Part shown: piece after piece, positions 2-62,377 of the stretch
How the letters are laid out: the number at the start of each line of letters is the position of its first letter
Numbering within the stretch: position 1 is the first letter of the stretch
NCBI GenBank assembly: GCA_964016885.1
Contig: OZ024746.1
Coordinates: forward strand, 95,852,001-95,916,000
Source: Eledone cirrhosa
Taxonomy: Eukaryota
Length of the DNA: 64,000 bases
Reading direction: 5' to 3'
The notes under the pieces: model-generated
The model's database searches: none
Told to the model about the DNA's origin: nothing
Seen by the model: the letters and a program-made list of their open reading frames with translations, nothing else
Made by a program: the position numbers and the translations under genes

Positions 2-3000
2 CCTATTGTTAGAACAACTAAATTAGAAGATAGTACTGAGAAAGCAATAACAATGAAATATGATTATTTAAAAGAAAAAAGCTTAACAAGTAGTAAAGAA
101 ACAATGATCCTGTTTAATACAATGAAAACCCAATGGACAAAAACATACGAAACAGCTATAGCAACCAACACAACATACAAAGGTTTTACAATTCTATATA
201 TTGTTACATCACCTAAAGAACAACTAATTTCTAAGCCATCTGATACTGATATCATATTAAAACCCCCAGTAAGTTTGATACGAGAGACAATAATATATGA
301 TCGAATTGGAAGAGTGGTGACTGAAGGATTCCTACATGTGAAAGACATCTCAGAAGACAAAGAAATTGTGACATTCAGTTCAAAACATGTGGTATCTGAA
401 GACCAAATAATTCAAGAAACAGATACATATAAATTAATCTATTTAAAAACCAAAGATCAAGACATGATTACATCAATAATACCCCATATAATATCTAAGG
501 CAGTATTGTTTACACATAAATATGGAACTTTTAATGATACCTTCCCTATTGTCTCTATAACAGAAAATATAACATCTGTAGATGTAACATATGTAATATT
601 TACAGTAGAACATGTATCTCCTCAATATATAACAGATGTTACTTTAATATCAGAACATGTAATAATACCTGATACTTATATATCAAAACATATATCATCT
701 AGAGATACACTAACAGACATTTCTACACAAAAACCTGACACATTTAAAGATGAAGTAACATTCACTGATATATCAAACAAAACAACATTTGTACATGTAA
801 TAGGTATTTCTATGATATCAGTTATTATTACATCTAGAGATATAACAGTGGTTAGTACTATACCAGACCATGTGACATCTGCAGATATAACAGCAGTTAC
901 TTCTATACCAGACCATATAACAGCTGCAGATATAACAACAGTTAGTACTATACCAGATCATATGACATCTGCAGATATAGCAACAGTTAGTACTATACCA
1001 GACCACATGACATCTGGAGATATAGTAGCAGTTAGTACAATACCAGACCATGTGACATCTGAAGATATAACAGCAGTTAGTACTATACCAGATCATATGA
1101 CATCTGGAGATATAACAGCAGTTAGTACTATACCAGACTATGTGACATATGGAGATATAACAGCAGTTACTTCTATACCAGATCATGTGACATCTGAAGA
1201 TATAATAGCAGTTAGTACTATACCAGACCATGTGATAGCTGGAGATATAACAGCAGTTACTTCTATACCAGCCCATGTGACATCTGGAGATATAACAGCA
1301 GTTAGTACTATACCAGACCATGTGACATCTGGAGATATAACAGCAGTTAGTACTATACCAGACCATATGACATCTGGAGATATAGCAGCAGTTAGTACTA
1401 TACCAGACCATGTGACATCTGGAGATATAACAGCAGTTACTTCTATACCAGACCATATTACTGCTGGAGATATAACAACAGTTAGTACTATACCAGATCA
1501 TATGACGTCTGGAGATATAACAGCAGTTAGTACTATACCAGATCATGTGACATCTGGAGATATAACAGCAGTTACTTCTATTCCAGATCATGTGACATCT
1601 GGAGATATAACAGCAGTTAGTACTATACCAGACCATGTGATATCTGGAGATATAACAGCTGTTAGTACTATACCAGACCATGTTACATCTGGAGATACAG
1701 ATACTGTTAGTTCTGTACCAGACCATGTGACATCTGGAGATATAACAGCAGTTAGTACTATACCAGACCATGTGACATCTGGAGATATAACAACAGTTAG
1801 TACTATACCAGATCATATGACATCTGGAGACATAACAGCAGTTAGTACTATACCAGACCATGTGACATCTGGAGATATAACAGCAGTTACTTCTATACCA
1901 GACCATATTACTGCTGGAGATATAACAACAGTTAGTACTATACCAGATCATATGACGTCTGGAGATATAACAGCAGTTAGTACTATACCAGATCATATGA
2001 CATCTGGAGATATAACAGCAGTTAGTACTATACCAGATCATGTGACATCTGGAGATATAACAGCAGTTACTTCTATTCCAGATCATGTGACATCTGGAGA
2101 TATAACAGCAGTTAGTACTATACCAGACCATGTGATATCTGGAGATATAACAGCTGTTAGTACTATACCAGACCATGTGACATCTGGAGATATAACAGCA
2201 GTTAGTACTATACCAGACCATGTTACATCTGGAGATACAAATACTGTTAGTTCTGTACCAGACCATGTGACATCTGGAGATATAACAGCAGTTAGTACTA
2301 TACCAGACCATGTGACATCTGGAGATATAACAACAGTTAGTACTATACCAGATCATATGACATCTGGAGACATAACAGCAGTTAGTACTATACCAGACCA
2401 TGTGACATCTGGAGATACAGATACTGTTAGTTCTATACCAGATCATGTGACATCTGGAGATATAACAGCAGTTAGTACTATACCAGACCATGTGACATCT
2501 GGAGATATAACAGCAGTTAGTACTATACCAGACCATATGACATCTGGAGATATAGCAGCAGTTAGTACTATACCAGACCATGTGACATCTGGAGATATAA
2601 CAGCAGTTACTTCTATACCAGACCATATTACTGCTGGAGATATAACAACAGTTAGTACTATACCAGATCATATGACGTCTGGAGATATAACAGCAGTTAG
2701 TACTATACCAGATCATATGACATCTGGAGATATAACAGCAGTTAGTACTATACCAGATCCTGTGACATCTGGAGATATAACAGCAGTTACTTCTATTCCA
2801 GATCATGTGACATCTGGAGATATAACAGCAGTTAGTACTATACCAGACCATGTGATATCTGGAGATATAACAGCTGTTAGTACTATACCAGACCATGTTA
2901 CATCTGGAGATACAGATACTGTTAGTTCTGTACCAGACCATGTGACATCTGGAGATATAACAGTAGTTAGTACTATACCAGACCATGTGACATCTGGAGA

Positions 3001-6000
3001 TATAACAACAGTTAGTACTATACCAGATCATATGACATCTGGAGACATAACAGCAGTTAGTACTATACCAGACCATGTGACATCTGGAGATATAACAGCA
3101 GTTACTTCTATACCAGACCATATTACTGCTGGAAATATAACAACAGTTAGTACTATACCAGATCATATGACGTCTGGAGATATAACAGCAGTTAGTACTA
3201 TACCAGATCATATGACATCTGGAGATATAACAGCAGTTAGTACTATACCAGATCATGTGACATCTGGAGATATAACAGCAGTTACTTCTATTCCAGATCA
3301 TGTAACATCTGGAGATATAACAGCAGTTAGTACTATACCAGACCATGTGATATCTGGAGATATAACAGCTGTTAGTACTATACCAGACCACGTGACATCT
3401 GGAGATATAACAGCAGTTAGTACTATACCAGATCATATGACATCTGGAGACATAACAGCAGTTAGTACTATACCAGACCATGTGACATCTGGAGATACAG
3501 ATACTGTTAGTTCTATACCAGATCATGTGACATCTGGAGATATAACAGCTGTTAGTACTATACCAGACCATGTGACATGTGGAGATATAACAACAGTTAG
3601 TACTATACCAGATCATATGACATCTGGAGATATAACAGCATTTAGTACTATACCAGATCATGTGACATCTGGAGATATAACAGCAGTTAGTACTATACCA
3701 GATCATGTGACATCTGGAGATATAACAGCAGTTAGTACTATACCAGACCTTGTGACATCTGGAGATATAACAGCAGTTAGTACTATACTAGTTCATTTGA
3801 CATCTGGGGAGATAGACACTGTTAGTTCTATACCAGATTATGGGACATCTGGAGATAGAGTTACTGTTAGTTCAATACAAGATCGTGTAACACCTGAAGA
3901 TATAGTCACTTTTAGTTCTATACTAGATCAGGTTAAATCCGGAGAAATCACCACTGTTAGTTCTATACCAGACCATGTGACATTTGGAGATATAGACAGT
4001 GTTAGTTCTGTACTTGATCATGTGACATCTGGAGATATAGACACTGTTAGTTCTATACCAGATCATGTGGTAGATGAAGATATAATTACTGTTAGTTCTA
4101 TACCAGACCATGTGACATCTGGAGATACAGTCACTATTAGTTCTATAGCAGATTATGTGATATCTGGAGACTCAGAGACTATTAGTTCAATACCAGATCA
4201 TGCAATATCTGGATATACAGTTACTGTTACTTCAACACAATATCCTGTGACATCTGGAGATATAGTCCCTGTTAGTCCTATTGTTGATCATGTGACATCT
4301 GGAGATATAGATAGTTCTGTACCAGACTATGTGACAACTGGAGATACAGTCACTGTTAGTACTATACTAGACCATGTTACACCTGGAGATATAACAGCTA
4401 TTAGTTTTATTGCAGATCATGTTACATCTGGAGAGACCGTCAATATTAGTTTTATACCTGACCATGTGACATCTGGAGACACAACGACTGTTAGTGCTAT
4501 ACAAGACCATGTGACATCTGGAGAAATAAGAACTATTAGTTCTATATCAGATCGTTCAACATCTGGAGATGTAACAACTGTTAGCGCTCAACTAGATCAT
4601 GTGAAATCTAGGGACATAACAACTGCTAGTTCTGTGCTAGATAATGTAACATCTGGAGATATAACTACTGTTAGCTCTATACCAGACCATCTTACATCTG
4701 GAAGTATAACAACTATTAGTTCTATACCAGATCATGTTACATCTGGAGAGATAACAACTATTAGTATTGCCCCAGTTCATGCAACATCTGGAGATATAAC
4801 AACTGTTAGTTCTATACCAGATCATGTGACATCTGTAGACAGAGTCAATGTTAGTTCTGTACCAGATGTTGTAACATCTGGAGATATGACAATTACTATG
4901 TCTGTACCAGATCATGTGACATCTACTGTACCAGATGCCACAAGAACAGAATATATAATAACTCTTACAGAACCTGTGAAATCTGAAGATACAACAGAAA
5001 CAGGTGTTACTATTCCAGAATCTACCCAATTTCCAGACATTTTGATCATTACATCACATGCTGCTAGATCAGTAGATAGCACTGTATTAGAAATATCAAC
5101 ACCTGAACTACCTGTGTTGCCAGTAACTGTAACATTTGAATCAGTTGAATTAGTTAGTTCTGTGTATGAGATAACATCTCAACTGACTATTACTTCTATA
5201 CCAGTTTATAGAACAACTAAACATAAAGCAACTGTAACTATTTCTCTAACAAAACATTTAATATCTAATGATACAGAAACTGCTATGTATTTAGCAGATC
5301 CTGTATTATATACAGATAAAGAATCTATTATATTTATAACACAGCCTGTAATATCAGCACAATCAGTAGATTATACAGAGAAATATATAACAGTCAACAC
5401 TACTGGAATTGTTCATTCAATGTCAGAATATATAACAATTAAAGATACAATAGCTTTTACTTCAATACAAGAAATATTAACATCTAAAATAAATGTAAGT
5501 GATATTAGTATCACATCTAAACATACTGTGACATCTATATCTGTGCCTGTAACTGCCATGAAAGTACATGTAAGATCTAAGGGGGATGAAATTCAAATAT
5601 CATACAAAGATAGTGTACAGTTTATTTCTACACCAGATATAACAACAGCTGTAACAATTAGTTCTATAATAGACAAAGCTACACCAGCATTATCAGATAT
5701 AGCAACTGCTATTTCTACACCAGCATTATCAGATATAACAACTGGTATTTCTATACGAGTTATAACAGTTAGTTCTGTTATAGACAAAGCTAAACCAACA
5801 TTATCAGATATAACAACTGCTATTTCTGCACCAACATTATCAGATATAACAACAGCTATTTCTGCACCAACATTATCAGATATAGCAACAGATATTTCTA
5901 CACCAGTTGTAATAATTAGTTCTGTTTTGGACAAAGTCACACCAACATTATCAGATATAACAACTGTTATTTCTACACCAGTTATAACAATTGTTACAAT

Positions 6001-9000
6001 TAGTTCTGTTATAGACAAAGTCACACCAACATTATCAGATATAGCAACAGCTATTTCTACATCAGAACATGTAATATCTACAGATAAGGTTAATGTTTCT
6101 TTTATATGGAGACACAAAATATCTAAATATATGATAGCAGTTACATCTAAATTGGAAAAACTATTTGTCACTGTTGTACCAACTTACAGAATATCTACAG
6201 AAACAGTACCCAGTATTTGGGTATCAAAGGAAATATTATCCAGAGATATAATAACTGTTACATCATCTGAAGATATCACATCTAGCAAGCTTATATTCAG
6301 AACAATATCATTGGTAAAGACAGATGGGGATATTTCAGACACCAGGTTTGAAGATAAAGCTACATATGTTACTAGACTTGAATATATAATATCTGGATAT
6401 ATAGACACCATAACGCCAATATCAAAATATGAAATATTTGAGGAAACAGAAAATATTACTTTTCTAACAGAACATACAACACATAAAGATACAGTAGTGG
6501 TTAATTATCTACAAAACCACACGATATCTGAAATTGTACAAAATGGCACTTTTTTACAGAAGCTTATAACATCTGGTGATAAACATATTGATACTTCCAT
6601 ACTTGAACAAGGAACAGCTAAAGATTTAATAAATTTTACTCGTGTACCAGTTATTTCTATACAAGATCATGTGACATATGAGTATTTAAATGATTCATTT
6701 CTAACAAAACATCTGATATCTAGAGATACAATATATGTTGATTTGATATCAGGATATGCTACACCGGAAGATTTAGCAACAATCACTTCTATATTGAAAC
6801 ACATATTAGCAACATCTGGAGTGGCTGAAAATGTTACATTTATACTGGAACATGTAACATCTAGCTATTTAGTAAATGTCAGTGCTACAACAAAGACTGT
6901 CATAACTAGACATCCAGTAATATACACTTCTGTATCAGAACGTCTAACATTTAGAGAAAGAACAGAACATGGCACATTTGGAGATACATTATCTCTTACT
7001 TTTATGCCTGAAAATGTAACAGACATAGGCACAGTAGAGATAACAACTAGAGAGAAGCTAACTATTACTTCTATGTTATATAATATAACATATAAGGATG
7101 TAGAAACTGTTAGTTTCATACCTGAACATGTAATATCTGAAAAATTAATAAATGCTACTTCTATTGAGGAAACTATAACATATGAAGAAGATATAGCAAC
7201 TATTACTTCTATTCAAGAACTTATATCATCTGGATCATCTGGAGATATAGCTGTTATGCTAACTACAAAATATATAACATATAGAAGTATAACAGATGTT
7301 AGTTTATTACCAGAATCTACCATATCTAGAGATATGACAACTGTCATTTCTATACCAAAACATATAACAACAAGATACAGTATAAATATAACTGTACATT
7401 TTGTCCAGAAACAAGCAGAACCTGAAGATACAACAACTGTTACAAATAAAACAGATCGTGAAATAATTAGAGATATCATAACTTTTAGATCTACACCTGA
7501 AATTGTAATTACACAAGATATGGGAGTTGTTCATTATTCTCTCCCAGAACAAATAACATTTGAATACATGGTAAATATTACTTCTGTATCAAAGCAGCTG
7601 GAAATATCAAAATACCCAATAAATGTTACTTTTATGTCAAAGCATCTAACATCTAAAGAGAGAATAAATGTTACTACCATAACAGATCATTTGAGATCTA
7701 CAGATGAAGTGATACTTATTTCTAAACCTGAATATGTAACATTATTAGATATATTAAGCATAACAACTGAAAAAGCCATAACTGTTGGTTTTATATTAGA
7801 TCCTGTAACATATGGAGATATTGCTACTGTTGTTTCCATATCTGAAGATTTAGTGGAAGTTTCTTCTGTATATATAACATCTAAGGATAAAGCAATTGTT
7901 ATTTCTATATCAAATCAAACAACATCTAGAGATACAATAAATGCTACTCTGACACCTGAATACCTCACATATGAAGATATAACAACAATTGCTTCTACAC
8001 TGAGACAATTAACATCAAGTCAAACAAAGAATATTTCTTTTATACTGAAATATGTAATATCTGAATATACTGCAATTGTCACTGTTAAATCAGATCATAT
8101 ATTATCTGGAGATATGGAAATTGATAGCTCTAAATATGTATATATATTATCAACTGATTCTAAACAAGATGATATAACCCCTGTAACAACAGTAGAGATG
8201 GTAGCTATTACCTCTATAACAGACCATGTGGTATCTGGAGATATCTCATTTGGCTCATTAGCAGAACATATAATATCCAAAGATATAATAACTGCTTTTT
8301 CTATCCCAGAACAAATAACATTCACAGAAACTGCAGATGTAACATCTGGAGAAATAATAACTGTTGTTTCTTTACCAGAACATAAAGCATCTGGGACTTT
8401 TATTCAATTATATATAAAAACTAAAGATACATTAAATGTTACATCAACAGTGAAAACTATAATATCTACAGATATAACAACTGTTTCTTTACTGGAACTT
8501 GTAGCATCTAAACCTACCACAATTGGTACTTCTGTGGATTTATATACAAAAAGTGAAGCTAAAATAATTATTAAAGTTATAATAGATGCAGTCACATGGA
8601 GGACTATCACAGCAGTTATTTATATACCAGAACTGTCAACATCTGGAGCCTCAATAACTAATGTTTCTATTCATGAAAATGTAACATCAAGAGACTTAGT
8701 GATTGCTTATGTACCGGAACATTCTACATCTGAAGACTTGTTAAATATTACTTCTCTGTCAATAGACATATTATACAGAGGTATAGTAAATGTTACTTCC
8801 ATGCAAGAACATCTAGCACTTGTAGATTCAAAGATCAGTACATCTGTATTAAAACATCTAACACATAGAACTAGAGAAGGCTTTCCTTCTGCAACAGAAT
8901 CTGTCGATATATCAGAGCAAGTAACAGTCAAGAATATATCAAAGGATTTACAAACATTTCAAAAACTAACAGGCATAATGGATATAGCATCTATAACATC

Positions 9001-12000
9001 TGGAGATTTAATCACAATTATTTCTATAATTGATCAAATAACATCTGAGGATACAATAATTGATATGTCTACACTTAAGTATGTAATATCTAAAGATATA
9101 GTAACTGTTATGTCAATACCAGACTATGTTGCATCTGGAGTTACAGCAACTGTTGCAAGTATATCAGACCATGTAACACCTGGAGATACAGTAGTTGTTA
9201 TATCTACCCTCGATTATGTAACATCTGGAGATACAATAACTGCTATGTCAATATCAGACTATATTACATCTGGAGATAGAGTAAGTGGTCTGTCTTTACC
9301 AGACTATATTACATCTGGAGATATAGTATCTGTTGGGTCTTTACCAGACTATATTACATCTGAAGATACAGTAACTGGTGTGTCTTTACCAGACTATATT
9401 ACGTCTGGAGATACAGTAGCTGGTGTATCGATACCAGACTATATTACATCTGGAGATATAGCAACTGGTGTATCAATACCAGACCATATTACATCTGTAG
9501 ATACAGCAACTGGTGTGACAATACCAGACTATATTACATCTGGAGATATTGCAACTGGTGTGACAATACCAGACTATATTACATCTGGAGATATAGCAAC
9601 TGGTGTGACAATACCAGACTATATTACATCTGGAGATATAGCAACTGGTGTGACAATACCAGACTATATTACATCTGAAGATATAACAACTGGTGTGACA
9701 ATACCAGACTATATTACATCTGGAGATATAGCAACTGGTGTGACAATACCAGACTATATTACATTTGGAGATACAGTAACTGTTGTATCAATACTAGACT
9801 ATATTTCATCTGGAGATGTAGCAACTGTTACATCTTTATCAGGCTATGTTACATCTGGAGGTACTGTAACAGCTCTATCTATATCATACCATGTAATATC
9901 AAGTGATACTGCATCTGTAACTTTTATATCATCATATCATATAATATCTGATGATACAAAAACAATTGTCTCAATAACTGGAGATAGAATAACTCTTAGT
10001 TCTATACCAGACCATATAATAACAAAAGATAAACCTTCCACTTCTTTATCAGTATATTTGATACCTAAAGATATAATAACTACAACATTTATGTCAGAAT
10101 ATATAACATATAAACATATATATACAATAACTTTAACTTTGATACCAGAACAGATATTAACTCTTACATACAGACGAGAAGATGTAACATATGAACATAC
10201 AGTAACACTTACTTCTATATTAAAACATATGACGTCTGAAGATACAGCAACTTTTACGTCTATACCAGAAGATATGACAACTCCAGATGCTTTGAGTCTT
10301 ACATATAAGCCAGAATATATAACATATGAATACACAGTGACTTTTGCTTCTATACCAGGAGATATGACCTATGAACATAAAGTAAATTTGACTTATGAAC
10401 ATATAGTAAATTTGACTTCTAGTGAAGAAGATATGACATCTGAACACCTATTAACTCTTACATATAAACCAAAAGATATGACTTATGAACCTACAGTGAC
10501 TCCTAGATATAAACCAGAAGATATATCTTATGAACATACAGTAAATTTAACTTCTATACCAGAAAATATGACATCTGAAGATGCAGTGACTCCTATATAT
10601 AGGACAGAATATATAGTTCTTAAGGAAACAGTAACATTTACTTCTATATTAGAACATATAATATCAAAAGATTTAGTGAATGTTACATCTATATCAGGTC
10701 ATGTAATAGATGATGATTTAGTAACTGGCACTATTGAACTAGACTATGCAATATTTCAAACAGCTTCTGTACCTGAACTAATAACATCTGGAGACACTGC
10801 TATTGCTGTGTCGGACGTCTTGATTCCCGAAATAAGTGTAAACGAAACCCTTGTGCTTGAAAGAGAAACTTTGGAAGCTAATAAAACTATGATATCAGAA
10901 AATATTACAGTTAAATATTCCTCATTAGTTAGCTTTGTAGATGAATGTCTATCATGTACAGATATAGCAACTGGTGTTTCTACACCAGAACATGCAACAG
11001 TCATATATATTAAAACTGAAACTTTTGACAGAGGAATTATAACATCTGTTCAAGTTGAAAATATTACATTTATATCAGTATATGTAAAACCTGGAGACAT
11101 GATAACCCTGCCTTCTAAACTTGAATATGTGATATCTAATTATACATTATTTGATACTTCATTGGTTTCATTGGCAGATCAAAATACGACTGCATACTTC
11201 ATAGATGATCTATCTCTACTAGTTCAAACAACACCTGATAGTGATGCACTTGGGGTAACAGGAAGTTTATTAGGAGAACATAGAACATTTGGATATGTCT
11301 GGAGAAACTTCACTACTAGTGAAGATGAAGGGAAATCTGATGTCATAGATATCAAAACAACTGGTAGCTTTTTCACAGATGTAACAACTACAGATGTAAT
11401 AACTGGAATAACTCATCTTTTTATACACCAAAATATATCAGTTGAAAGTAAATATATAGATTCATTAATTTATCAAATAACAATAAGTGGTGTATCTAAA
11501 AGGAAGATATCGCACACTCGTAAGATAACATCAGATATATTGCCTCTTATTGTATTATCAACACAAATGTATGACATGAAAAGTTTAAGAGATGATAAAA
11601 ATATCAGTATAGATACTATGATATCTTCTATGAAATATAGTAAAGTATCCATAACTGATACAGGTGATACTATAAGTCTTCCAAAAATATATTATATACA
11701 ACCACCATATATTACTACAACTGACACAATGGCAACAAAACTCTTTGATTCAGATATAAAAAGTATAGGAACTAATAGAAGTGCATTACCTGCTAAACCT
11801 ATCTCCCTGACTTCTGACATGATACAAAGGAAATCAATTACAACTTCTAATATAAGTCACTTGATGGAAATAATTCTCATTTCAACTGATTTCATGATAC
11901 AAAGTGTACAACCAGAAACATCATTTGTTGTTGATCATAGCCACACTAAAGAGATGTCCACAACAAAGGAAACAGTATCAATAGACAGTACACAGAAAGA

Positions 12001-15000
12001 CATCCAATTTACAGATATAATGTATAGGAGGGTTAGAGAAGATATAAATGATACAACCATTGACCATAGTATATCAGAGATATCCTATATCAGTACAACA
12101 GAGCATCCATTATCTTACATAGAGTATAAAAGAGCTATTACAACTGGAAGTACACCAGATTTAATCACAGTTTCCAGTATTCCGATCACAACTGCAGAGC
12201 CAGAAATTACAACAGATTTTACTACATGCAGTGGGTGTTCTCATTTAGTCACATCTGGTGGTAGGACTGTATTTTACAGGACATTTGCTGCAGAGTCATC
12301 TTCAGAAAGTCAATCCATGCACTTAAAACAGAAAGCATTTCAGATTGATACCTCTTTTATTTCGTTGACAATGTCTGAATCCCCTGAACAGTTTAATTAT
12401 AGTAAAGTATCAAAAGAGATGTCTCCATTAATGCTAACCAGATTAATAACCACTGAAACTGGGTTTCCAATCTCATTGGAGGATGACTACTGGAAATTTC
12501 TCAAAAGTACTACTGAGTTCTACTCAGATAAAATAACATTAAAACTTTTGACTTTTGATCTCCCATCTATAACTGGTTCTCAAATAATAAATAAGACAAG
12601 TATACATGGAACAGTTTTAACAAGTGAAAGTATGTTGGAGTTATTATCAACAAATTTATCAAAACCTATTAAATACTTTCCAGCAGTTATTGATAACACT
12701 ACAAAATCATTAAAATCAATGACCCCAGTTTTTGTGAGTAAGATATGGCTAGATCTAGTTCCAATAACATCTTTGTCAGGAATAACTGAAGCTACGGCTG
12801 ATATAAGTAAAGAAACATTATCATCTGTAGTTGACTCTCAACTAGCATCATTATCATATGTTGATATAATGACACCTTTGTCAACCATTAGTGAAAATAT
12901 AACATTTAAAAGTACAATGTTGTTATTTCCAGATGACAAACTTTCAGTCTCCTTTGCTGATTTATTAACAGATATATCGCCAGTAAGTCACCCTATTGAT
13001 GACTTAAGCAGTATTATACTAACAGAGATAACACCATTAGATAGCAATGTTACTGTGTATAAAAGACCTCAAAGGATGGTCAGTATTACATCTATATCCT
13101 CTATCATGACATCTGAAATGACAGAAACTGTTACTTTAATTCGAAAAGACCTAATAATTGAAGGCAGATTTTCTGAACAGGTAACATTGGTACAAATAGA
13201 AATTGATAGACTCTCTGCTACATCTCTGCCAGAACAGATAACCGCTCTGCCAGAACAAATAACATCTCTGCCAGAACAGATAACATCCCTGCCAGAACAG
13301 ATAACCTCTTTGCCAGAACAGATAACATCTTTGTCAGAAAAGGTAACATCTCTGCCAGAACAGATAACATTTCTGCCAGAACAGGTAACATCTCCGCCAG
13401 AACAGATAACATCTCTGTCAGAACATGTAACATCTCTGCCAGAACATCTAACATCTCTGTCAGAACACGTGACATCTCTGTCAGAACAGGTAACATCTCT
13501 GCCAGAAGAGAGAACAGCTCTGCCAGAACAGATAACATCTCTGTCAGAAAAGACAACATTTATACCAGAACAAATAACATCGCTGTCAGAACAGGTAACA
13601 TCGCTGCCAGAACAGATAACATCTCTGTCAGAAGAGACACCATTTCTGCCAGAAGAGACAACATCTCTACCAGAACAGATAACATCTCTGCCAGAACAGA
13701 TAACATCTCTGCCAGAACAGATAACATCTCTGTCAGAATACGTGACATCTCTGTCAGAACAGATAACATCTCTGTCAGAAGAGACAACATTTCTACTAGA
13801 ACAGATAACATCTCTGCCAGAACACGTGACATCTCTGCCAGAACAGATAACATCTCTGCCACAACAGATAACATCTCTGTCAGAAGAGACATTTCTACTA
13901 GAACAGATAACATCTCTGCCAGAACAGGTAACATCTCTGTCAGAAGAGACAACATCTCTGCCAGAACAGGTAACATCTCTGCCAGAACAGGTAACATATC
14001 TGTCAGAACAGATAACATCTCTGTCAGAACAGGTAACATCTCTGTCAGAAGAGACAACATCTCTGTCAGAAGAGACAACATCTCTGCCAAAAAAGACAAC
14101 ATCTCTGCCAGAACAGATATCATCTTTGCCAGAACAGATAACATCTCTGTCAGAACAGATAACATATCTGCCAGAACACATGACATATCTGTCAGAACAG
14201 GTAACATCTCTGCCAGAACAGCTAACATCTCTGCCAGAACAGATAACATCTCTGTCAGAACAGATAACATATCTGTCAGAACAGGTAACATCTCTGTCAG
14301 AAGAGACAACATCTCTACCAGAAAAGACAACATCTCTGCCAGAACAGGTAACATCTCTGCCAGAACAGGTAACATCTCTGTCAGAACAGATAACATCTCT
14401 GCCAGAACAGATAACATCTCTGTCAGAACAGACACCTCTGTCAGAACAGGTAACATCTCTGCCAGAACAGACAACATCTCTACCAGAAAAGACAACATCT
14501 TTGCCAGAACAGATAACATCTCTGTCAGAACAAGTAATATCTCTGCGAGAACAGATAACATCTCTGCCAGAACGGATAACATATCAGTCAGAACAGATAA
14601 CATATCAGTTAGAACAGATAACATCTCTGCTAGAACAGGTAACATCTCTTCCAGCACAGGTAACATTTGATGAGACAGCAACTGATATTTCAACACAGAA
14701 ACATATAACATCTGTAAGCTGGCACTCAGAAGATGTTATTTCTGTAGTGGAAAATATGACTATTATTGGATCAACAATGACTTTCACAAAGGGACTTATG
14801 TCATCTATATCAATACAGGTAACACCAGAAGCCACATCAACAGTTGTGTCTATACCAGAACATATAATATCTGAAAAGGAAGTCATTGTTACATCTGTAC
14901 CAGACTTTCTAACATCAGATTATATGGTATTTGTTCCTTTACCAGAATATGTGACATCTGAAGGATTATTAAATGTTACTTCTCTACTGCCACATGTGTC

Positions 15001-18000
15001 ATCTAAAGGCCGTATTACTTCTGTAGAAAGACATGTAGCATCTCAAGATATGGCTAACATCACTTCTATAACAAGACATGTAGCATCTCAAGATATGGCT
15101 AACATCACTTCTATAACAAGACATGTAGCATCTCAAGATATGGCTAATATCACTTCTATAACAAGACATGCAGCATTTGTAGTAGATACAGGGGACATTA
15201 CTCCCGTATTGAAAAATTTAACAGCTGGAGTTACAACAATAATTCTTTCTAAATCAGGTCGTGTAGATATATCAGTTGTTAGTCAAACACCAGAACATGT
15301 ATTATCAACAAAGAAGACATCCATTATTGTTATACCAGGACTTGAAACATCAATAGATTCCTCAAGTGTAATATCTGAAGAAATAATAACTGTTACTTCA
15401 ATACTAGGAAACATAACAACTAAGGATATTGTCAGTTTTAGTTCTATACCATTTAGATCTCCGGTGAATCATTCAATTGACATATCTACATTTGTAAGTG
15501 ATTCTCATTACAGCAGTTTATCAACAGAAGCATCTTCATATATTCTTGTCACATATCCTGATCTTAGTACAATGATACAATTCCCCTGTAAGCCAACTCC
15601 ACCATCAAAATATCTACATATTAAATGTACTGGACAACAAAAATTACTTGTTTCCACTTCTCAAACATACTCACTCTGTCATGATGTTCAAAAAGATGTC
15701 ACAACAGAAATATGCTATGGTCTTCAAACAGAATTCAGTGCCATACTAACAACACTAAGTATATATCCATCATATGATTATTCATCTACATTCTATTTAC
15801 ATTATACAACTTCAATGACAGACAAATCTATATATCCAGATACAACTATGTCCTATGTTAGCAGTACACCAACAATCATGTTTCCTGACAAAACTCAGAC
15901 AGGACAGATTGATCTGTTTTATGCTTACACTACAAAACCTTTTTCTTCAGCGTATATGTTAATAGATTATTCATCTTTGAAAGAAATACAAGCTTCAAAA
16001 AAAGATGATACAATGACAGTTATCTTGATACCAGACCATGCTACATCTGGAGATACAGCAACAGTTACTGCAATAGCAGACTATGTCATATCTAGAGATA
16101 CCGTAACTGGTATCTCTCTTTCAGACCATGCTACATCTGGAGATATAGTAACTGTTATTGTTATACGAGACCATGTAACATCTGGAGATACAGTAACTGT
16201 TGTGTCTGTATCAGCTTACATAACATCTGGAGATACAATAACTGTTATCTCTCTACCAGGTAAAATCATATCTGAAGATGCTATAACTGTTAGTACTATT
16301 CCAGACCATGTAACATCTGGAGATACAACAACAGTTACTGCTATATCAGACCATGTAACATCTGGAGATACAACAACAGCAGTCACTGCTATATCAGACC
16401 ATGCCATATCTGGAGATACAACAACAGTCACTGCTATATCAGACCATGTAACATCTGGAGATACAACAACAGTCACTGCTATATCAGACCATGTAACATC
16501 TGGAGATGCAACAACAGATACTGCTCTATCAGACCATGTAACATCTGGATATACAACAACAGTTACTGCTATATCAGACCATGCCATATCTAGAGATACA
16601 TCAACAGTCACTGCTATATCAGACCATGTAACATCTGGAGATACAACAACAGTCACTGCTATATCAGACCATGCCATATCTGGAGATACAACAGTCACTG
16701 CTATATCAGACCATGTAACATCTGGAGATACAACAGTCACTGCTATATCAGACCTTGTAACATCTGGAGATACAACAACAGTCACTGCTATATCAGACCA
16801 TGTAACATCTAGAGATACAACAACAGTCACTGCTATATCAGACCATGTAACATCTGGAGATACAACAACAGTCACTGCTATATCAGACCATGTAACATCT
16901 GGAGATACAACAGTCACTGCTATATCAGACCATGCTATATCTAGAGATTCAACAACAGTCACTGCTATATCAGACCATGCCGTATCTAGAGATACCCCAA
17001 CAGTTACTGCTATATCAGACCATGCTATATCTGGAGATACAACAACAGTCACTGCTATATCAGACCATGCCGTATCTAGAGATACCCCAACAGTTACTGC
17101 TATATCAGACCATGCCGTATCTAGAGATACCACAACAGTTACTGCTATATCAGACCATGCCGTATCTAGAGATGCAACAACAGTCACTGCTATATCAGAC
17201 CACGTAACATCTGGAGATACAACAACAGTCACTGCTATATCAGACCATGCCATATCTAGAGATACAACAACAGTCACTGCTATATCAGACCATGCCGTAT
17301 CTAGAGATACCACAACAGTCACTGTTATATCAGACCATGCCGTATCTAGAGATACCCCAACAGTTACTGCTATATCAGAGCATGCCATATCTAGAGATAC
17401 AACAACAGTCACTGCTATATCAGACCATGCCATATCTAGAGATACAACAACAGTCACTGCTATATCAGACCATGCCATATCTAGAGATACAACAACAGTC
17501 ACTGCTATATCAGACCATGCCGTATCTAGAGATACCACAACAGTCACTGCTATATCAGACCATGCCGTATCTAGAGATACCCCAACAGTTACTGCTATAT
17601 CAGACCATGCCATATCTAGAGATACAACAACAGTCACTGCTATATCAGACCATGCCATATCTAGAGATACAACAACAGTCACTGCTATATCAGACCATGC
17701 CGTATCTAGAGATACAACAACAGTCACTGCTATATCAGACCATGTAACATCTGGAGATACAACAACAGTCACTGCTATATCAGACCATGTAACATCTGGA
17801 GATACAGCAACAGTCACTGCTATATCAGACCATGTAACATCTGGAGATACAACAACAGTCACTGCTATATCAGACCATGTAACATCTGGAGATACAACAA
17901 CAGTCACTGCTATATCAGACCATGTAACATCTGGAGATACAACAACAATCACTGCTATATCAGACCATGTAACATCTGGAGATACAACAACAGTCACTGC

Positions 18001-45000: not shown

Positions 45001-48000
45001 TTCACAACCTTTACAGCAAATATCAAGACAACTCACTACAAAGGCTACAGTTCCATTTAAAACAAGAGCGGACAATATCTCACAACCTTTACAATTTCTT
45101 CCAAATGAGACATCAAGTGTTTTATTAACTAAACATTTAACTAGTAGTGAGGACAAAATCCTGCTGATTTCTTCTAGAGATATTAAAATAATTGAAATAA
45201 GTCTGGTTACAGAGAATTTTACTGTGGAAGTGCCAGAAATAACCACAGAAACTGTTCTAATAACAGGACAGCTGAAGTATGTACCACATATTTCCTATGT
45301 TCATGAAAATATGAGTATGTCTGGTTTGGAGACCTCTGATAAAACACAGACAATGTTTGTGGGGTCAAGGAAGACAATAGCAGCAGTAAAACCATATTTA
45401 GAACCATATATTTCTGTTAAATCTGGTATTTTCTACAGTATTTTGATATCAACTGATGCAACACATTTAAGAGAAATATCCAGCAAGGAAAGGAAAAGTT
45501 CAGTTGAAGCAATGGACTTTAAAATATCATTACAACCCCTGAATGTGACCTTATACCAAACTGATGTCTTAACAACAGCAACTCCACTCAACGTGACCTT
45601 ATACCGAAGTGATGTCTTAACAACAGCAGCTACACTCACAACTGCTCCACTCACGACAACTGCTCCACTCACAACAACAGCTCCACTCAATGTGACCTTA
45701 TACCAAACTGATATCTTAATAACAACAGCTCCACTCAATGTGACCTTATACCAAACCGATATCTTAATAACAACAGCTACACTCAATGTGACATTATACC
45801 AAAGTGATATCTTAATAACAACAGCTCCACTGAATGTGACCTTATACAAAAGTGATGTCTTAACAACAGCAGCTCCACTCACAACAGCCACTCCAGTCAC
45901 AACAGAAGCTCCACTCACAACAACAGCTACACTCAATGTTACCTTATACCAAACTGATATCTTAACAAAAACAGTTCCACTCACGACAACTGCTCTACTC
46001 ACAACAGCTCCACTCAATGTGACCTTATACCAAACTGATATCTCAACAACAGCTACACTCAATTTGACAGCTCCACTCACAATTTCTCCATTCAATGTGA
46101 GTATATACCAAACTAATATTTCAACTACAGAAGCTCCACTCATAACAGCAGTTACATTCACAACTGCTCCACTCAATTTGACCTTATACAAAACTAATAT
46201 CTTAACAACAGCAGCTCCACTCATGACAACTTCTCCACTCTCAACAACAGATACACTCACAACAGCTCCACTCAATGTGACCTTATACCAAACAGATATC
46301 TTAACGACAACAGCTACACTCAATGTGACCTTATACAAAACTGATATCTTAACAACTACTCCACTCACAACAACTGTTCCACTTAATGTGACCTTATATC
46401 AAACTGATATCTTAACAACAACAGCCACACTCACAACAGTAGCTACACCCACAAAAGCAGCTACACTCACAAAAACAGCTCCACTCACAACAACATCTCC
46501 ACTCACAACAACAGCTCCACTCACAACTACTCCACTCAATGGGAGTATGTACCAAACTAATATTTCAACTACAGAAGCTCCACTCACAACAGCAGCTACA
46601 CTCACAACAACAGCTCCACTCAATGTGACCTTATACCAAACTGATATCTTAACAACAGCAGCTCCACTTACAACTGCTCCACTCACAACAACAGCCCCAC
46701 TCACAACAGCTTCACTCACAACAGCTTCACTCACAACAACTTCACTCACAACAACAGCTCCACTTACAACTGCTCCACTCAATGTGAGTGTATATCAAAC
46801 TAATATTTCAACTACAGAAGCTCCACTCACTACAGCTTCACTCACAACAACAGCTGCACTCACAACAACAGCTTCACTCACAACAACAGCTCCACTCACA
46901 ACAACAGCTGCACTCACAACAACAGCTTCACTCACAATAACAGTTCCACTCACAACAACAGTTGCACTCACAACAACAGCTTCACTCACAACAACAGCTC
47001 AACTCACAACAACAGCTCCACTCACAACAACAGCTCCACTCACAACAACAGTTCCACTCACAACAACAGCTCCACTCACAACAACAGCTCCACTCACAAC
47101 AACAGCTCCACTCACAACAACAGTTCCACTCACAACAACAGCTCCACTCACAACAACAGCTCCAATCAATGTGAGCTTATATGAAACTGATATCTTAACA
47201 ACAACAGCTCCACTCACAATAACAGCTCCACTCACAACAACAGCTCCTCCACTCAATGTGAGTGTGCATCAACCTAATATTTCCACCACAATGGCTACCA
47301 CTAAAATAACTACAAGACACTTTATAACATCAAAGCCACAGATATTAAAATATTCTGCTACAACTTTATATAATGATACCACTGTATATTATAGTAAAGC
47401 TAGGGATGTGATAACATATACAGATAGTGAGATATATAGTTATACCACTGTATATTATAGTAAAGCTAGGGATGTGATAACATATACAGATAGTGAGATA
47501 TATAGTTATACCACTGTATATTATAGTAAAGCTAGGGATGTGATAACATATACAGATAGTGAGATATATAGTCTGATAGATAACACAACTTTTATATATC
47601 GCCTTAGTGATAATACGACCTTGACTTATGGTGTTTCAGATAGTACGACCTTGACTTATGGTGTTTCAGATAATAGGACCTTGACTTATGGTGTTATAGA
47701 TAATAGGACCTTGACTTATGGTGTTACAGATAATACGACCTTGACTTATGGTGTTATAGATAATAGGACCTTGACTTATGGGATTACAGATAATATGACC
47801 TTGACTTATGGTGTTATAGATAATAGGACCTTGACTTATGGGATTCCAGATAATACGACCTTGACTTATGGTGTTATAGATAATAGGACCTTGACTTATG
47901 GTGTTATAGATAATACGACCTTGACTTATGGTGTTTCAGATAATAGGACATTGACTTATGGTGTTATAGATAATACGACCTTGACTTATGGGATTACAGA

Positions 48001-49322
48001 TAATACGACCTTGACTTATGGTGTTATAGATAATACGACCTTGACTTATGGGATTACAGATAATACGACCTTGACTTATGGGATTCCAGATAATACGACC
48101 TTGACTTATGGTGTTATAGATAATAGGACATTGACTTATGGTATTATAGATAATACGACCTTGACTTATGGTGTTTCAGATAATAGGACATTGACTTATG
48201 GTGTTATAGATAATACGACCTTGACTTATGGGATTACAGATGGATTTCACAAATATAATAAAACAATTAGTTTTGTAAATGGTACAATATCTTCTGTAGA
48301 TATCACAACTTCTAAATCTAATGAAACATATAGATTTGTAGATATAACAACATATTCTTATAGATTTAAAGATAATATTAGTTATACTGTAGATTTTATA
48401 AAAACAACTATTAAATCTTCTGATACATCTATATTTTCCGTAACTTCTACACAAAGCAGCATCTTAGAATACTCATGGGTAGCTTTAAATATTACAAGTT
48501 CCTCTTTATTCAAATTAACTAGTTATTTGTCAGAATTCAATAAAACAACTCAAAGGCCTAGTAGAATATTATCTGATGCTTATTTAACCACAGTTTCACT
48601 GTTGTATGATGACTCTAGGAAAACAGTTAAGAGTTATGATACAGAAAGCCAAACCCAAAAGCTTAAAAGCTTTCTTTATCATACACCATTACATAATAGA
48701 TCTACTACTGAACATTTTATTTCAAAAACTACTGATAGTTTAAGAGGTGAAAATATTACTATTGTATCAGATCCCACTTTTATTGGTCATTTGCTAGTAA
48801 GTACTTTATTAAAAACAGAATATACTAAAACATCTCACCAACCTCTGCTAAGTTCTGGCATAAGATTATTGGACCAAGTCTATAAATCCACACAAATATA
48901 TTCAGGGAATGTTTCCGATATTTCTTCTGCAAAGCCTGTTCCATCAAGTTCCAGTAGGAATGGAACTTTAGAGGCAATGCCAGAAAAAACTTCTGTATTT
49001 TTTTATGTAAAACATTCATTGAAACCAAAACTAGAAAATCACACTTCTTCCCCATTTATGAAAGGTTACAGCTCAATACAACCAGAACACATCTCAACTG
49101 ATGCCCTATATACAAATACTATTGACTTACTATCAACAGCTGACAAAACTGTAACTGTTATACCGGTGTCTTTTACAATAGATACTAGCTTGGAATCAGC
49201 AGTGACACCTACTGTTAGCCAACATATCACCATCACTTCAGAAACTGCTACTACAACTTATAATCTGATAACAAATGGTAGTTATATACCAAAACTGACA
49301 ACTCCATTTGTTAAAGAAACAG
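2..49322 (+). CDS. Giant internal coding exon (>=49.3 kb, 5'-truncated by window) of a mucin-like protein; Thr/Ser/Pro-rich tandem-repeat stalk
   Basis: Frame +2 is open from base 2 (PIVRTTKLEDSTEKAITMK...) through ORF 53..49333. It ends at ACAG|GTAAGA (GT at 49323-49324, phase 1), three codons before the ORF stop. All repeat-unit indels keep the frame, and the phase matches the next exon. Confidence 0.88.
830..4920 (+). repeat. Coding tandem array, 45 bp / 15 aa (TSGDITAVSTIPDHV); homogeneous to ~3800, then degenerate
   Basis: Unit gacatctggagatataacagcagttagtactataccagaccatgt is directly visible. Confidence 0.97.
5620..6065 (+). repeat. Short coding array based on an 11-aa unit (PTLSDITTAIS) alternating with ISSVIDK segments
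   Basis: Repeated accaacattatcagatataacaac segments. Confidence 0.85.
9100..9830 (+). repeat. Coding array, 45 bp / 15 aa (TSGDIATGVTIPDYI)
   Basis: Repeated ccagactatattacatctggagatatagcaactggtgtgacaata. Confidence 0.93.
13220..14665 (+). repeat. Coding array, 21 bp / 7 aa (EQITSLP/EQVTSLS)
   Basis: Repeated agaacagataacatctctgcc. Confidence 0.96.
15029..15170 (+). repeat. Three near-identical 45-bp copies (RHVASQDMANITSIT)
   Basis: Direct triplication visible in DNA and protein. Confidence 0.92.
16030..20736 (+). repeat. Coding array, 45 bp / 15 aa (TSGDTTTVTAISDHV, with AVSR/AISG variants), very homogeneous
   Basis: Repeated aacatctggagatacaacaacagtcactgctatatcagaccatgt, about 100 units. 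Confidence 0.98.
21635..25795 (+). repeat. Coding array, 45 bp / 15 aa (STDTPDVSTVHSDII)
   Basis: Repeated tctacagacacaccagatgtcagtactgtacacagtgatataata, with a 225-bp higher-order unit near the 3' end. Confidence 0.97.
33238..33680 (+). repeat. Coding array, 18-19 aa (DISPVYSTLNYTDITDIPK) carrying NYT/NYS sequons
   Basis: Repeated gatatatccccagtctattctacattaaactacacagatatta. Confidence 0.9.
34613..35601 (+). repeat. Coding array, 39 bp / 13 aa (TDISPQGTYYSTV)
   Basis: Repeated gacagatatatcaccccaggggacatattactctacagt, with a 345-bp higher-order duplication. Confidence 0.96.
37945..39790 (+). repeat. Coding array, 42 bp / 14 aa (YPLNTTASAIHTSM), N-glycosylation sequon in nearly every unit
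   Basis: Repeated tacccattaaatacaacagcatcagccatacatacatccatg. Confidence 0.96.
39782..40090 (+). repeat. Coding array, 60 bp / 20 aa x5 (VDIYTSTYPSHMSTLYTPAA)
   Basis: Five consecutive 60-column lines align. Confidence 0.94.
40136..41700 (+). repeat. Coding array, 15 bp / 5 aa (MSTTD/MSTPD)
   Basis: Repeated atgtcaacaacagat, about 100 units, with a 285-bp higher-order duplication. Confidence 0.97.
41693..42625 (+). repeat. Coding array, 42 bp / 14 aa (MSTPDIPTSMYPTN)
   Basis: Repeated atgtcaacaccagatatacctacatctatgtaccctacaaat. Confidence 0.94.
43709..44025 (+). repeat. Coding array, 42 bp / 14 aa (DISLYSSHTPIYPR)
   Basis: Repeated gatatctcattatattcttcacatacaccaatttatccaagg. Confidence 0.92.
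44858..45092 (+). repeat. Three copies of a basic 78-bp / 26-aa unit (QQISRQ.TTKATVPFKTR.DSISQPL)
   Basis: Visible triplication. Confidence 0.88.
45535..47275 (+). repeat. Composite array of TTTAPL hexapeptides and LNVTLYQTDIL units
   Basis: Repeated acaacaacagctccactc and ctcaatgtgaccttataccaaactgatatc. Confidence 0.93.
47378..47572 (+). repeat. Three copies of a 66-bp / 22-aa unit (TTVYYSKARDVITYTDSEIYSY)
   Basis: Essentially identical triplication. Confidence 0.93.
47609..48241 (+). repeat. Coding array, 30 bp / 10 aa (DN[T/R/M]TLTYGV[I/S/T])
   Basis: Repeated gataatacgaccttgacttatggtgttata, about 21 units. Confidence 0.96.
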
Positions 49323-49412
49323 GTAAGAATTAGCTGGTGATTTTAAATGTTATATTATGAAGGTGGTTCAAATTTAAGAGGGATTAAATTAAAGATTTAT
49401 ATTATACATACA

Positions 49413-53306: not shown

Positions 53307-53386
53307 CAAAAACACCGAAGATTCAAAGCATTATCAAACTGACATATGTTTCTGCCAGCTTAAAAATTTCCACTCTTCGGCCATAA

Positions 53387-54340: not shown

Positions 54341-54402
<62 letters not shown>

Positions 54403-56261: not shown

Positions 56262-56377
56262 ACAAAACATTTTCATCTTTTGTTGGTGATGTCCTAAATG
56301 GGGATGATGAGTTATCCCCCCCTTTACACCTCCCTACCACTGTGGCTTTTGGTAAGGATTCTTATGATATTCTATAT
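56262..56377 (+). CDS. Exon: N-terminal part of NIDO-region (DKTFSSFVGDVLNGDDELSPPLHLPTTVAFGKDSYDILY)
   Basis: Acceptor tttccattgcag|AC and donor TAT|GTAAGT, phase 1 in and phase 0 out. The GDD..S..L.L....FG..Y..LY motif typically precedes (V/I)STNG in NIDO-containing proteins. Not in the ORF track; translated by hand. Confidence 0.85.
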
Positions 56378-56562: not shown

Positions 56563-57191
56563 CAGAGTTGGATTTGGACCTTAGGGGGCCCCAGGGCACT
56601 TCAAAATTGGGCGGTCCCTCATACACAAAAAATTAGAATACACAGCAAACTCCCCAATTTTATTAAGTATGGTTGATGACATCTTCTTTTAAGTTAAAAT
56701 TTAACTTGAACTACTAATTTAACTTTGTTTAATTTGACCATAAGAAAAGATATAAAAGTTGTAGTCCCTATTTACTCTTCTCTTGAATATTTTAGACTCC
56801 ATGTCGTCTCCAGGAAAGAAGTAACTAGAATCAATTCTCATATAATTTTCCACTGTATGCAGGGTTGGATTTAGACCTTGGGGAGCCCAGGGCACTTCAG
56901 GTTTTGTGTGTGTGGGTGGGGCTGATACACAAAAAATTAGACCCCCCCCCCCCCCCCCAAAAAAAAAAAATTTACATATCAAAGTTAGTTTGTTACAAGT
57001 AATTGTAATTCAAAAGTTATACATACAGGTATTAAATAAAAAAATTCTAACTATCCTAAAACTAAAAAAAGCCCTGCTGAGGGCATAAATAAATTGCTAT
57101 GGCCATCGCTGATGCCCCCCCTCCCCACCCACACACACTGAAGTGGACCCTGGGCAATTGCCCCATTTGCCCTCCATTATATCCTGCCCTG
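56563..57191. mobile_element. Probable hAT-type MITE(s) with duplicated 5' end
   Basis: cagagttggatttggacc (56563) and cagggttggatttagacc (56860) starts; end ...ttatatcctgccctg (57191). No clear TSD. Confidence 0.5.
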
Positions 57192-57504
57192 CATCTACAC
57201 CTAGTTTTCTTAGTAACCACCATACTACAGAGTATAAGTCAATGTCAAAAGTATTCTCTCGGTCAATAAATACTAGGTTTTGGAGTTTGTTCTTAGCTAA
57301 TTCTACAGTTGTCTCATGAGGAAAATGACATTGGTTCTACCCTGACCTCACATAAACCCAAATTATCTTTCCTCTAAGCTAATTATCCTCCTAATTAGTA
57401 AGGTGAGAACTTGTGTTCGGGCCGCAGACGTTCTCCAGTTTAGCACAAGAAGTACTATAACATCCATTGTTGTCTTATCAAGTGAGTGTGTGCTTTTATG
57501 TTCT

Positions 57505-57795
57505 CTCTCTTTCACACTCACTGCCCCCTCTGTCTCTCTCACTCTCCCCATCTCTCTCTTTCACTCACTGCCCCCTCTGCCTCTCTCACTCTCCCCATCT
57601 CTCTCTTTCACACTTACTGCCTCTGTCTCTCCCACTCTCCCCATCTCTCTCTTTCACTCACTCTCTCCATCTCTCTCACTCTCCCCATCTCTCTCTTTCA
57701 CTCACTGCCTCTGTCTCTCTCACTCTCCTCATCTCTCTCTTTCACTCACTGCCTCTGACTCTCTCACTCTCCCCATCTCTCTCTTTCACTCACTC
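57505..57795. repeat. Pyrimidine-rich ~44-46-bp minisatellite
   Basis: Repeated ctctctctttcactcactgcctctgtctctctcactctccccat, about 6-7 copies. Confidence 0.9.
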
Positions 57796-57869
57796 AGGAA
57801 CCCACTTGCTGGCTGCCCCACAGCACTAGCAATCAAAATAGAGAAGTTGTGCTTTAAATCTTTGTATGA

Positions 57870-58356
57870 AGGTGCATGGCTGAGTGGTTAGAGCTTGAGC
57901 TTGCAATCGTGAGTTTGTAAGCTTGATTCTCGGACAAGATGATGTGTTGTGTTCTTGAGCAAGACACTTTATTTCACATTGTCCCAGTTTACTCAGTTGT
58001 AGATTTGAGTCGTGATGTCCCTTGGACAACATCATACATAGTGTACATATAATACACATAGTGTATATATAATATATGTAGTGTATATATAATGTATATA
58101 GTGTATATATAGTGCAAACATAATGTATATAGGGTTTATATATAGTGTATATATAATGTATATATCAGTGGTGCCAAGCAGTATTGGCCATTGTTTTTCT
58201 TTTAGACAACATCGGTGGTGTGGAGAGGAGAGACTGGTATGCATGGGTGACTGCTGGTCTTCCACAAAAAAACTTTGCCCAGACTTGTACCTCAGAAAAG
58301 AACTTTCTAGATGCAAATCCCATGGTCAATCATGGCCGAATGAGGTCTTTACCTTT
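57870..58356 (+). mobile_element. tRNA-derived CORE-like SINE interrupted by an AT-rich microsatellite
   Basis: A-box-like tggctgagtggttag and CORE-like tgtgttcttgagcaagacacttt. A second degenerate copy lies at ~60043-60180. Confidence 0.65.
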
Positions 58357-58936: not shown

Positions 58937-59224
58937 ATTTCTACAAATGGTTACATAACATTTGGGAAGAAACAGAATTTTCCTTCACCTCAAAGATTTC
59001 CTGACCCTCCAAATGCTGCTATTATAGCCCCATTTTGGAGTGATTTGGTTGTGGATGAACCTGGCCGAGTAACATATAAATTCTTTGAAATAGGCAGCAA
59101 AAACTTCCATGCAGCAACGAAACTGATCAAGTCTCGTGATGAGAAGAGTTTATTTAAAAAATGGGTACTTATCATAACCTGGGAAAATGTCCAGCCGTCA
59201 AGTAGGCTAAAGAATATCACAGAG
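58937..59224 (+). CDS. Exon: NIDO domain (ISTNGYITFG...IIAPFWSDL...WVLIITWENV...)
   Basis: Acceptor gtattacag|ATT and donor GAG|GTAAGG; 288 nt, phase 0-0. Contains hallmark STNG, IAPFWxD and ITWENV motifs. Confidence 0.92.
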
Positions 59225-60636: not shown

Positions 60637-60850
60637 ATGGCCACCTTCCAGATGGCACTTGTCCCTACTAAGACAGAAAAAAGAACATTTTTCATCTTCA
60701 GTTATCTCCCTGGAATGCAATCTTGGACAAAAACACTGGAACATACCGAAGTATCCATTGGGTTCTCTGATGGAAACCACAACTATAAACAGAACAAGAA
60801 CTCTTTCTCGCCGTCTGCTCTGGAGTTATACCATATGAAGGGTAATACAG
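60637..60850 (+). CDS. Exon: NIDO domain C-terminal half (MATFQMALV...FIFSY...W...IGFSDG...KGNTG)
   Basis: Acceptor (t)n-cag|ATG with CTAAC branch-like site and donor ACAG|GTATGA; phase 0-1. TFQxxL, GFSDG and GNTG-xPGxW motifs match NIDO. Confidence 0.9.
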
Positions 60851-61925: not shown

Positions 61926-61951
61926 TTAATTGAAATATTTTTTTACTTCAG

Positions 61952-62377
61952 GCAAACCAGGTGTTTGGGTTGAAACAATTGAAAACGACTTAGACATGCG
62001 AAGGCAACAATGCTTAAACTATGCATATTCTTCCGACTACTGGACCAACGCTCTATCCCATACCTGTCCATGTATACAGACACAAGCAAAAGCAGATTTT
62101 CGATTTAAATTTGTTTCCAGAGAAAATGGTACTTTAAAATTTGAAAGTATTTTTTCCCAGAATGGTCTGAAAGAACAATGTGTTTATGGCAATAGTTCAT
62201 TTGGTGAAACATTGATCATAGGCAGTCCTTTAGGAGGTTCAATCAGTGTTGATAATACAGATACTCTCGATAAACGGATGAAGAAGTTTTGCTGTGAAGG
62301 AATTCCATCTTACTGTAATCAGTACTACAGTCGGAGACCATCATCAAGTTGCAAGAATTATCTTCCTCCGAAACTAG
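61952..62377 (+). CDS. Exon: end of NIDO plus AMOP domain (GKPGVW...QCLNY...CPCIQTQAKADFRF...QCVY...FCC...YCNQYYSRRPSSSCKNYLPP)
   Basis: Acceptor ttttacttcag|GC and donor CTAG|GTAAGT; 426 nt, phase 1-1. CPC...QA..D.RF, QCxY and CC...C..Y..RRP...C..Y.PP are AMOP hallmarks as in MUC4/SUSD2/Mesh. Confidence 0.92.

Follow-up and report, generated by a model that had tools for sequence, protein, structure and literature searches.

The 64,000-nt stretch of Eledone cirrhosa DNA analysed here (the window; contig OZ024746.1, positions 95,852,001 to 95,916,000, forward strand) carries the 3' part of the stalk exon of a MUC4-like mucin gene. With the flanking DNA included, this gene, which is that of an intact MUC4-like membrane mucin, shows 128,751 nt without a stop from an AG acceptor to a GT donor. 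We consider it probable that this stretch is retained as one exon and translated in full, the predicted product being a type I membrane glycoprotein of ~43,900 residues and 4.8 MDa.

As indicated by a six-frame scan of the window (35% GC, zero N), frame +1 contained no stop from position 2 to 49330, that is over 16,443 codons, the runner-up reading frame being 4,536 nt long. A preliminary description of the window had claimed such a frame from base 2 to a GT donor at 49323 and an exon of at least 49.3 kb, open at the window edge; both claims held, the second being an understatement. When 100 kb was fetched on each side, the same frame was open for 79,513 nt further 5' of the window, giving 128,844 nt from stop to stop with no N, and a second tool (a genome search) returned an identical open frame of 42,948 aa. 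The 5' extension that had been called for led to a pyrimidine-rich AG acceptor at window coordinate -79428. The donor at 49322/49323 reads ACAG/GTAAGA, and the exon bounded by these two sites is in phase 1 at both ends, contains no N and is single-copy in the genome at each end. CpG observed/expected was 0.13 across the exon and 0.29-0.47 in the flanks, a low value for which codon use or long-term methylation of the gene body might account.

The base composition, which is AT-rich, predicts one stop per 13-22 codons. We looked at the 21 non-tandem blocks of at least 1 kb from the whole exon (55,264 nt): since they held 0 stops in 18,410 codons where 1,425 were expected from base composition, the open frame is not due to chance. 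The other five frames of the same blocks contained 736-1,888 stops, and a codon-position bias was present in the linkers. Dinucleotide microsatellites of at least 10 units were absent from the 128,751 nt, whereas three stretches of the flanks had 4.1-5.4 of them per 10 kb. A BLAST comparison of exon with flank gave 18 matches, all in one low-complexity patch (flank against flank, 3,303), and besides this patch BLAST revealed no interspersed repeats common to exon and flanks.

The tandem arrays pointed the same way. Seventeen of them contained 406 distinct single-base variants, of which 310 were missense, 96 silent and 0 nonsense (compare with 293, 102 and 11.2, respectively, expected from the observed mutation spectrum), with an omega-like ratio of 1.1. 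These counts show that stops have been selected against and amino-acid changes have not, also over the time in which the copies recently diverged; we infer that selection holds length, open frame and Ser/Thr density rather than sequence.

Downstream of the giant exon, the four exons proposed within the window joined with consistent phases (1, 0, 0, 1, then 1); all were bounded by AG and GT, and the joined translation of 16,788 aa had no stop. The description had read these exons as NIDO followed by AMOP. The NIDO part stood, PF06119 being matched on two exons and over the cut-off in the genome search, but AMOP was not formally detected: Pfam AMOP (PF03782) gave no match on exon 61952-62377, on ortholog models P0001, P0002 and P0006, or in the genome search. 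BLASTP of this segment against one AMOP paralog gave no match either, and its single-sequence fold was unusable (predicted local distance difference test score, pLDDT, 36.6). The exon obtained an ESM-Atlas feature match of 0.91, in a cluster of low recognition with AMOP on 26% of its members, and we take its Cys pattern and position to fit AMOP.

Beyond the window, the proposed 3' extension uncovered a GDPH-containing VWD, EGF repeats, a transmembrane (TM) helix and a cytoplasmic tail; with the signal-peptide-like hydrophobic stretch at the exon start, this bears out the MUC4-like architecture put forward earlier. PF00094 was over the cut-off on the orthologs, which are 75-92% identical in the VWD exons; Pfam NIDO also matched on orthologs, and PF00008 matched ortholog P0006. 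The gene model comprises 18 exons, 16 of them downstream of the giant exon, with 17 GT-AG introns and one terminal stop, and its coding sequence (CDS) of 131,670 nt predicts 43,889 aa and 4.83 MDa. It runs from the hydrophobic stretch through a basic Cys-bearing N-terminal region, the stalk, NIDO, the AMOP-like segment, GDPH-VWD, a linker and EGF to the TM segment (residues 43,769-43,787, hydropathy 3.25), which is followed by basic stop-transfer residues and a tail of ~100 aa. The protein is thus a MUC4-like membrane mucin by domain architecture, with a record-scale stalk exon.

At the N-terminal end, the hydrophobic stretch at residues 22-40 directly follows the acceptor and is signal-peptide-like by hydropathy (Kyte-Doolittle, 2.05). 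Candidate ATG starts lie at -86917, -82865 and -79489, the choice between them changing the length by fewer than 20 residues. Two small upstream segments (L003:3041-3089 and L003:7135-7183) end ATG...G/GT in phase 1, and either could be the first coding exon; the third start is an in-frame ATG 61 nt 5' of the acceptor. Furin-type RIKR sites are found at residues 538 and 566, within the N-terminal region. Residues ~690-870 (window ~-77550 to -76880; L004:2449-3123) contain eight Cys at a spacing of ~19 residues, each Cys ending a short hydrophobic beta-like stretch; a basic region lies on either side of the segment. The segment had no Pfam, Atlas or true homolog match; it might form a small head domain that folds or cross-links. 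Pfam recognised 0 families in the first 1,000 aa. A HMMER search of the N-terminus over 1.84 billion representatives returned one match, a nematode repeat translation, which we rejected as summed weak repeats only.

Table 1. Features of the mucin gene in window coordinates (C6, contig of the window)
Feature	Position	Strand	Remarks
Giant stalk exon, whole	-79428..49322 (C6:95772572-C6:95901322)	+	Tandem arrays 46%, non-tandem S/T-rich linkers 54%
Giant stalk exon, 3' 49.3 kb inside window	2..49322	+	Frame scan
45-nt (15-aa) array, 91 copies	830..4924	+	
Related 45-nt array	9094-9860	+	
21-nt (7-aa) array, 69 copies	13220..14666	+	
Related 45-nt array, 105 copies	16028-20733	+	
45/90-nt array, Ser/Thr/Asp/Pro-rich	21597..25794	+	
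Long non-tandem linker, Tyr/Ser/Thr/Ile-rich	26326..33236	+	No stop
42-nt array with N-T-T sequon in each unit, then 15-nt and 42-nt Met/Ser/Thr arrays	37946..42643	+	
Stalk C-terminal ~2,200 aa	42704..49322	+	Colinear with octopod mucin-4-like models
5' splice site GTAAGA	49323..49328	+	In-frame TAG 49331-49333 on intron read-through
Exon, 116 nt, NIDO region start	56262..56377	+	Junction with giant exon matches four ortholog models
Exon, 288 nt, first half of NIDO	58937..59224	+	Pfam PF06119, E 1.6e-12
Exon, 214 nt, second half of NIDO	60637..60850	+	PF06119, E 2.2e-6
Exon, 426 nt, Cys-rich, AMOP-like	61952..62377	+	87% to O. bimaculoides, 72% to Argonauta
Twelve further exons past the window	64691-88256	+	tblastn with ortholog models
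VWD with GDPH	64691- (GDPH exon 64691-64869)	+	Linker next
EGF-type repeats, Cys-rich exons	79084-82695	+	
TM exon	85090-85177	+	Then tail; stop codon 88254-88256

With exon 61952 as query, two relatives were found among 81 candidates, an O. bimaculoides mucin-4-like and an Argonauta hians mucin-like protein, and their clusters added two full models and one fragment. The description had expected gene predictors to miss or fragment the exon, and indeed the four octopod database models (O. bimaculoides XP_014785347.1, 1,648 aa, and XP_052824421.1, 1,739 aa; Argonauta hians GAB1598474.1 and GAB1609470.1) are only 1,586-1,739 aa long. They are orthologous to this gene from NIDO to tail, with 75-95% identity to O. 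bimaculoides in the downstream exons compared, and share the end of the stalk and its junction with NIDO, which is identical in 4/4 full-length models. They differ from the gene described here in that they begin within the stalk; they lack a signal peptide, and no more than ~1,080 of the ~42,900 stalk residues are represented in them. Three stalk blocks within 42704-49321 were colinear with the O. bimaculoides sequence, with 41-64% identity (alignment scores of 675-1,058 compared with a shuffled maximum of 149), and only the last block aligned to Argonauta, at 46-47% identity. Two control blocks further upstream scored at shuffle level. No sequence match to ortholog model P0002 was present in the PDB.

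A 6.7-kb interior block matched three listed sequencing runs, all from one sample and study and none of them RNA. Over 43000-58000 these runs are DNA contigs, unspliced across the donor and possibly from the assembly's own sample, and they constitute neither expression evidence nor independent support; in the exon part of this region they differed at five positions (2 silent, 3 missense), with no indel listed. Among the rows listed in the O. vulgaris skin-mucus protein table (PMC10138644 supplement), none of six conserved peptide motifs was present, and the mucin-4 and mucin-like rows listed there belong to other genes. A "mucin-4-like" protein reported from octopus skin mucus (PMC11431876) could be a product of this gene.

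A profile search of the genome gave 12 NIDO matches on 6 contigs. At 6/7 of the other NIDO loci there was no open frame above 3 kb within 40 kb upstream (80 kb for one), the longest frames there being mostly microsatellites. The remaining one is a second NIDO-VWD gene (C8:46257360-46339554, minus strand) with a classical Thr/Pro/Leu(/Glu) stalk, whose stop-free frame consists of 41,376 nt and 40,617 nt around a 200-N assembly gap and is 95% tandem, unlike the mosaic exon on C6. Because open frames flank the gap, an exon of at least 82 kb is possible there, which suggests that octopods tolerate such giant exons repeatedly.

Several points weigh against translation of the whole exon, or against parts of the gene model. 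Ortholog support is limited to the last ~5% of the exon, i.e. the last ~2,200 stalk residues; the N-terminal 900 aa had 0 matches among 6,331 candidates and no true relative, and 0/8,000 candidates were related to linker 26327-29626 (first 1,100 aa). Such blank upstream searches are to be expected since the databases hold short fragments of a fast-evolving stalk, and they show neither absence nor novelty. The count of array variants saturates per column, and the absence of nonsense variants is partly conditioned on the choice of an open frame. The AMOP label, without a Pfam match, is weakly supported, and the first coding exon is a guess, picked among three candidates. With Pro+Thr+Ser (PTS) at 35% and Ile, Leu, Val, Phe and Met (ILVFM) at 20-36% per 2,000-aa block, the composition departs from that of classical PTS stalks, of which the C8 gene has an example. 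Finally, 34 GTRAGT and 84 AATAAA motifs were counted within the exon, and the newer O. bimaculoides model drops 183 residues held by the older one, joining the match of 42704-43756 directly to that of ~44660; this omission corresponds to a predicted intron or gap inside a region that is exon here.

These last two points bear on internal splicing, which is the main rival to the whole-exon reading. The gene would be real, but in most transcripts exitron-type splicing, starts inside the stretch or early polyadenylation would leave a shorter product, the 43,900-aa form being rare. The motifs just mentioned, together with 3 Y10-NYAG motifs, and the skip of at least 183 residues are in keeping with this, and a 131.7-kb CDS would be costly to make. 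However, the skip may be the predictor's bridge across a gap, and the exon is poorer than the flanks in donor and acceptor motifs (GTRAGT, 2.6 compared with 4.4-5.9 per 10 kb), no AG/GTRAGT donor being found within the exon at all. Moreover, stops, frameshifts and microsatellites are absent from the stretch; since they would otherwise have gathered as they do in true introns, every part of the exon appears to be translated in some isoform, and we hold predominant trimming to be unlikely.

It is a little less likely still that the chain is made whole but serves as a structural beta-rich component of a fibre or cuticle, which the MUC4-type module would anchor or release, and not as a hydrated mucin brush. 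We counted this role as a rival because the stalk composition is atypical: the ILVFM share is 20-36% in all 22 blocks of 2,000 aa, Pro reaches just 2-9% in 21/22, and Val/Ile alternate with Thr/Asp in several arrays. Against this, Ser+Thr amount to 19-39% of each block, there are 878 N-glycosylation sequons, entire arrays being built on N-x-S/T, and the array sequence drifts near neutrally, which is more in line with a glycosylated spacer than with a folded fibre. In favour of an overestimated size, with arrays expanded or duplicated through errors of assembly, tandem repeats make up 46% of the exon and the similar C8 mucin exon does contain an assembly gap. Yet ~69.5 kb (54%) is non-tandem, there is no N, both ends are single-copy, the 22 exact repeats of at least 200 nt are all in frame, and because the longest exact repeat is 359 nt and the longest array 4.7 kb, we judge such inflation very improbable. 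We found nothing in the sequence in favour of the gene being silent or dead, with a frame kept open by its composition, and give this explanation almost no credence: stops would be expected every 13-22 codons, and 16/16 downstream exons are intact, with the identity to O. bimaculoides given above. Altogether, these data favour a single exon translated whole.

Inside this exon, of which Tandem Repeats Finder (TRF) masked 46%, ~30 unrelated arrays alternate with long linkers in a mosaic, and 70/73 TRF rows of at least 300 nt had periods divisible by 3. The intronic tandem arrays at 63655-63956 and 57502-57794, unlike those of the exon, have periods (68 and 22/44) that are not multiples of three. 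Three 45-nt arrays (830-4924, 9094-9860 and 16028-20733) are separate, yet the 15-aa unit is related in all of them. The linkers beside them resemble decayed copies, which suggests that linkers are possibly old arrays; the exon would have grown by repeated in-frame tandem expansion, old arrays then decaying into non-tandem linkers. The result is a large Ser/Thr-rich tandem-repeat stalk in one exon (S+T, 29%; 12,753 Ser+Thr), with less Pro and more Ile/Val than is usual in classical PTS domains.

If the product follows the MUC4 pattern, the putative signal peptide at the exon start would take the chain into the endoplasmic reticulum, where the stalk may be N-glycosylated on its sequons and O-glycosylated on up to 12,753 Ser/Thr. 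Autocleavage at GDPH would then yield an alpha chain of ~43,300 aa and a small membrane-anchored beta chain, and the RIKR sites could allow the N-terminal head to be trimmed. Glycosylated mucins extend by ~0.25 nm per residue, at which value the stalk would span ~10 micrometres; it could thus form a micrometres-long glycocalyx filament on the apical surface, perhaps shed into mucus. Read-through of the giant exon's donor meets a TAG within three codons and would give a secreted form of ~42,900 aa without anchor.

What is already known is the class of MUC4-like mucins; what is new here is the 128.75-kb stalk exon. The MUC4 layout and GDPH cleavage have been described (PMC8660890), and NIDO-AMOP-VWD mucins are known in invertebrates (PMC9080433). 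Vertebrate MUC4 and the cnidarian mucin4-like proteins resemble our gene in having a large repeat exon, NIDO, GDPH-VWD, EGF, a TM segment and a short tail; to their signal peptide and AMOP would correspond the putative signal peptide and the AMOP-like segment of our model. The MUC4 variable number tandem repeat (VNTR), whose longest allele is 27,843 bp (PMC13345508), consists of one repeat type, whereas the present exon is an Ile/Val- and sequon-rich mosaic of arrays and linkers, and its AMOP-like segment, unlike that of MUC4, is too divergent for Pfam. MUC12 and MUC16 also have a very large internal coding exon in a membrane mucin, but differ in the C-terminal module. The size benchmark used earlier (MUC16 ~21.7 kb and TTN ~17 kb as the longest well-known human coding exons; >21 kb and >17 kb in PMC3467050) is outdated, since the longest human MUC12 allele reaches 23,080 aa in what is termed the largest human coding exon (PMC13345508); 49 kb alone would therefore be no record. 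The 128.75-kb exon exceeds the complete coding sequence of that allele by a factor of at least 1.86, and MUC16's exon by one of ~6.

In the literature covered, which leaves out most subscription papers, we found no account of how large this gene is, and none of an exon or animal protein that is larger; the record claim is provisional. On balance, we lean slightly towards a record length, among those described, for both a coding exon and an animal protein, the 4.83-MDa chain of 43,900 residues being made whole and forming a glycan filament of about ten micrometres on octopod epithelia. If so, it would set a new upper size for an animal protein and for a spliced coding exon (~2 times the largest human case in print), and would raise the questions of what lets the spliceosome recognise an exon of 129 kb, by what means RNA polymerase gets past 84 AATAAA motifs and in what way a chain of 44,000 residues is dealt with in the secretory pathway. 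Current octopod annotations lack ~96% of the predicted protein, and mucus proteomics is therefore blind to it.

Among giant proteins, titin has 38,138 aa, 4.2 MDa and 363 exons (PMC12198301), PKZILLA-1 has 45,212 aa, 4.7 MDa and 17 exons (10.1101/2024.01.29.577497), and predicted Omnitrophota proteins reach 85,804 and 147,155 aa. With its predicted 43,889 aa the mucin stands above titin, slightly below PKZILLA-1 and far below the bacterial giants; its predicted mass, before glycans, exceeds the 4.7 MDa of PKZILLA-1. Titin and PKZILLA-1 are backed by RNA or peptides, while the giant mucin is predicted here from DNA sequence. It is unrelated to both in sequence and role, being a predicted animal protein of the secretory pathway with 98% of its chain encoded by one exon.

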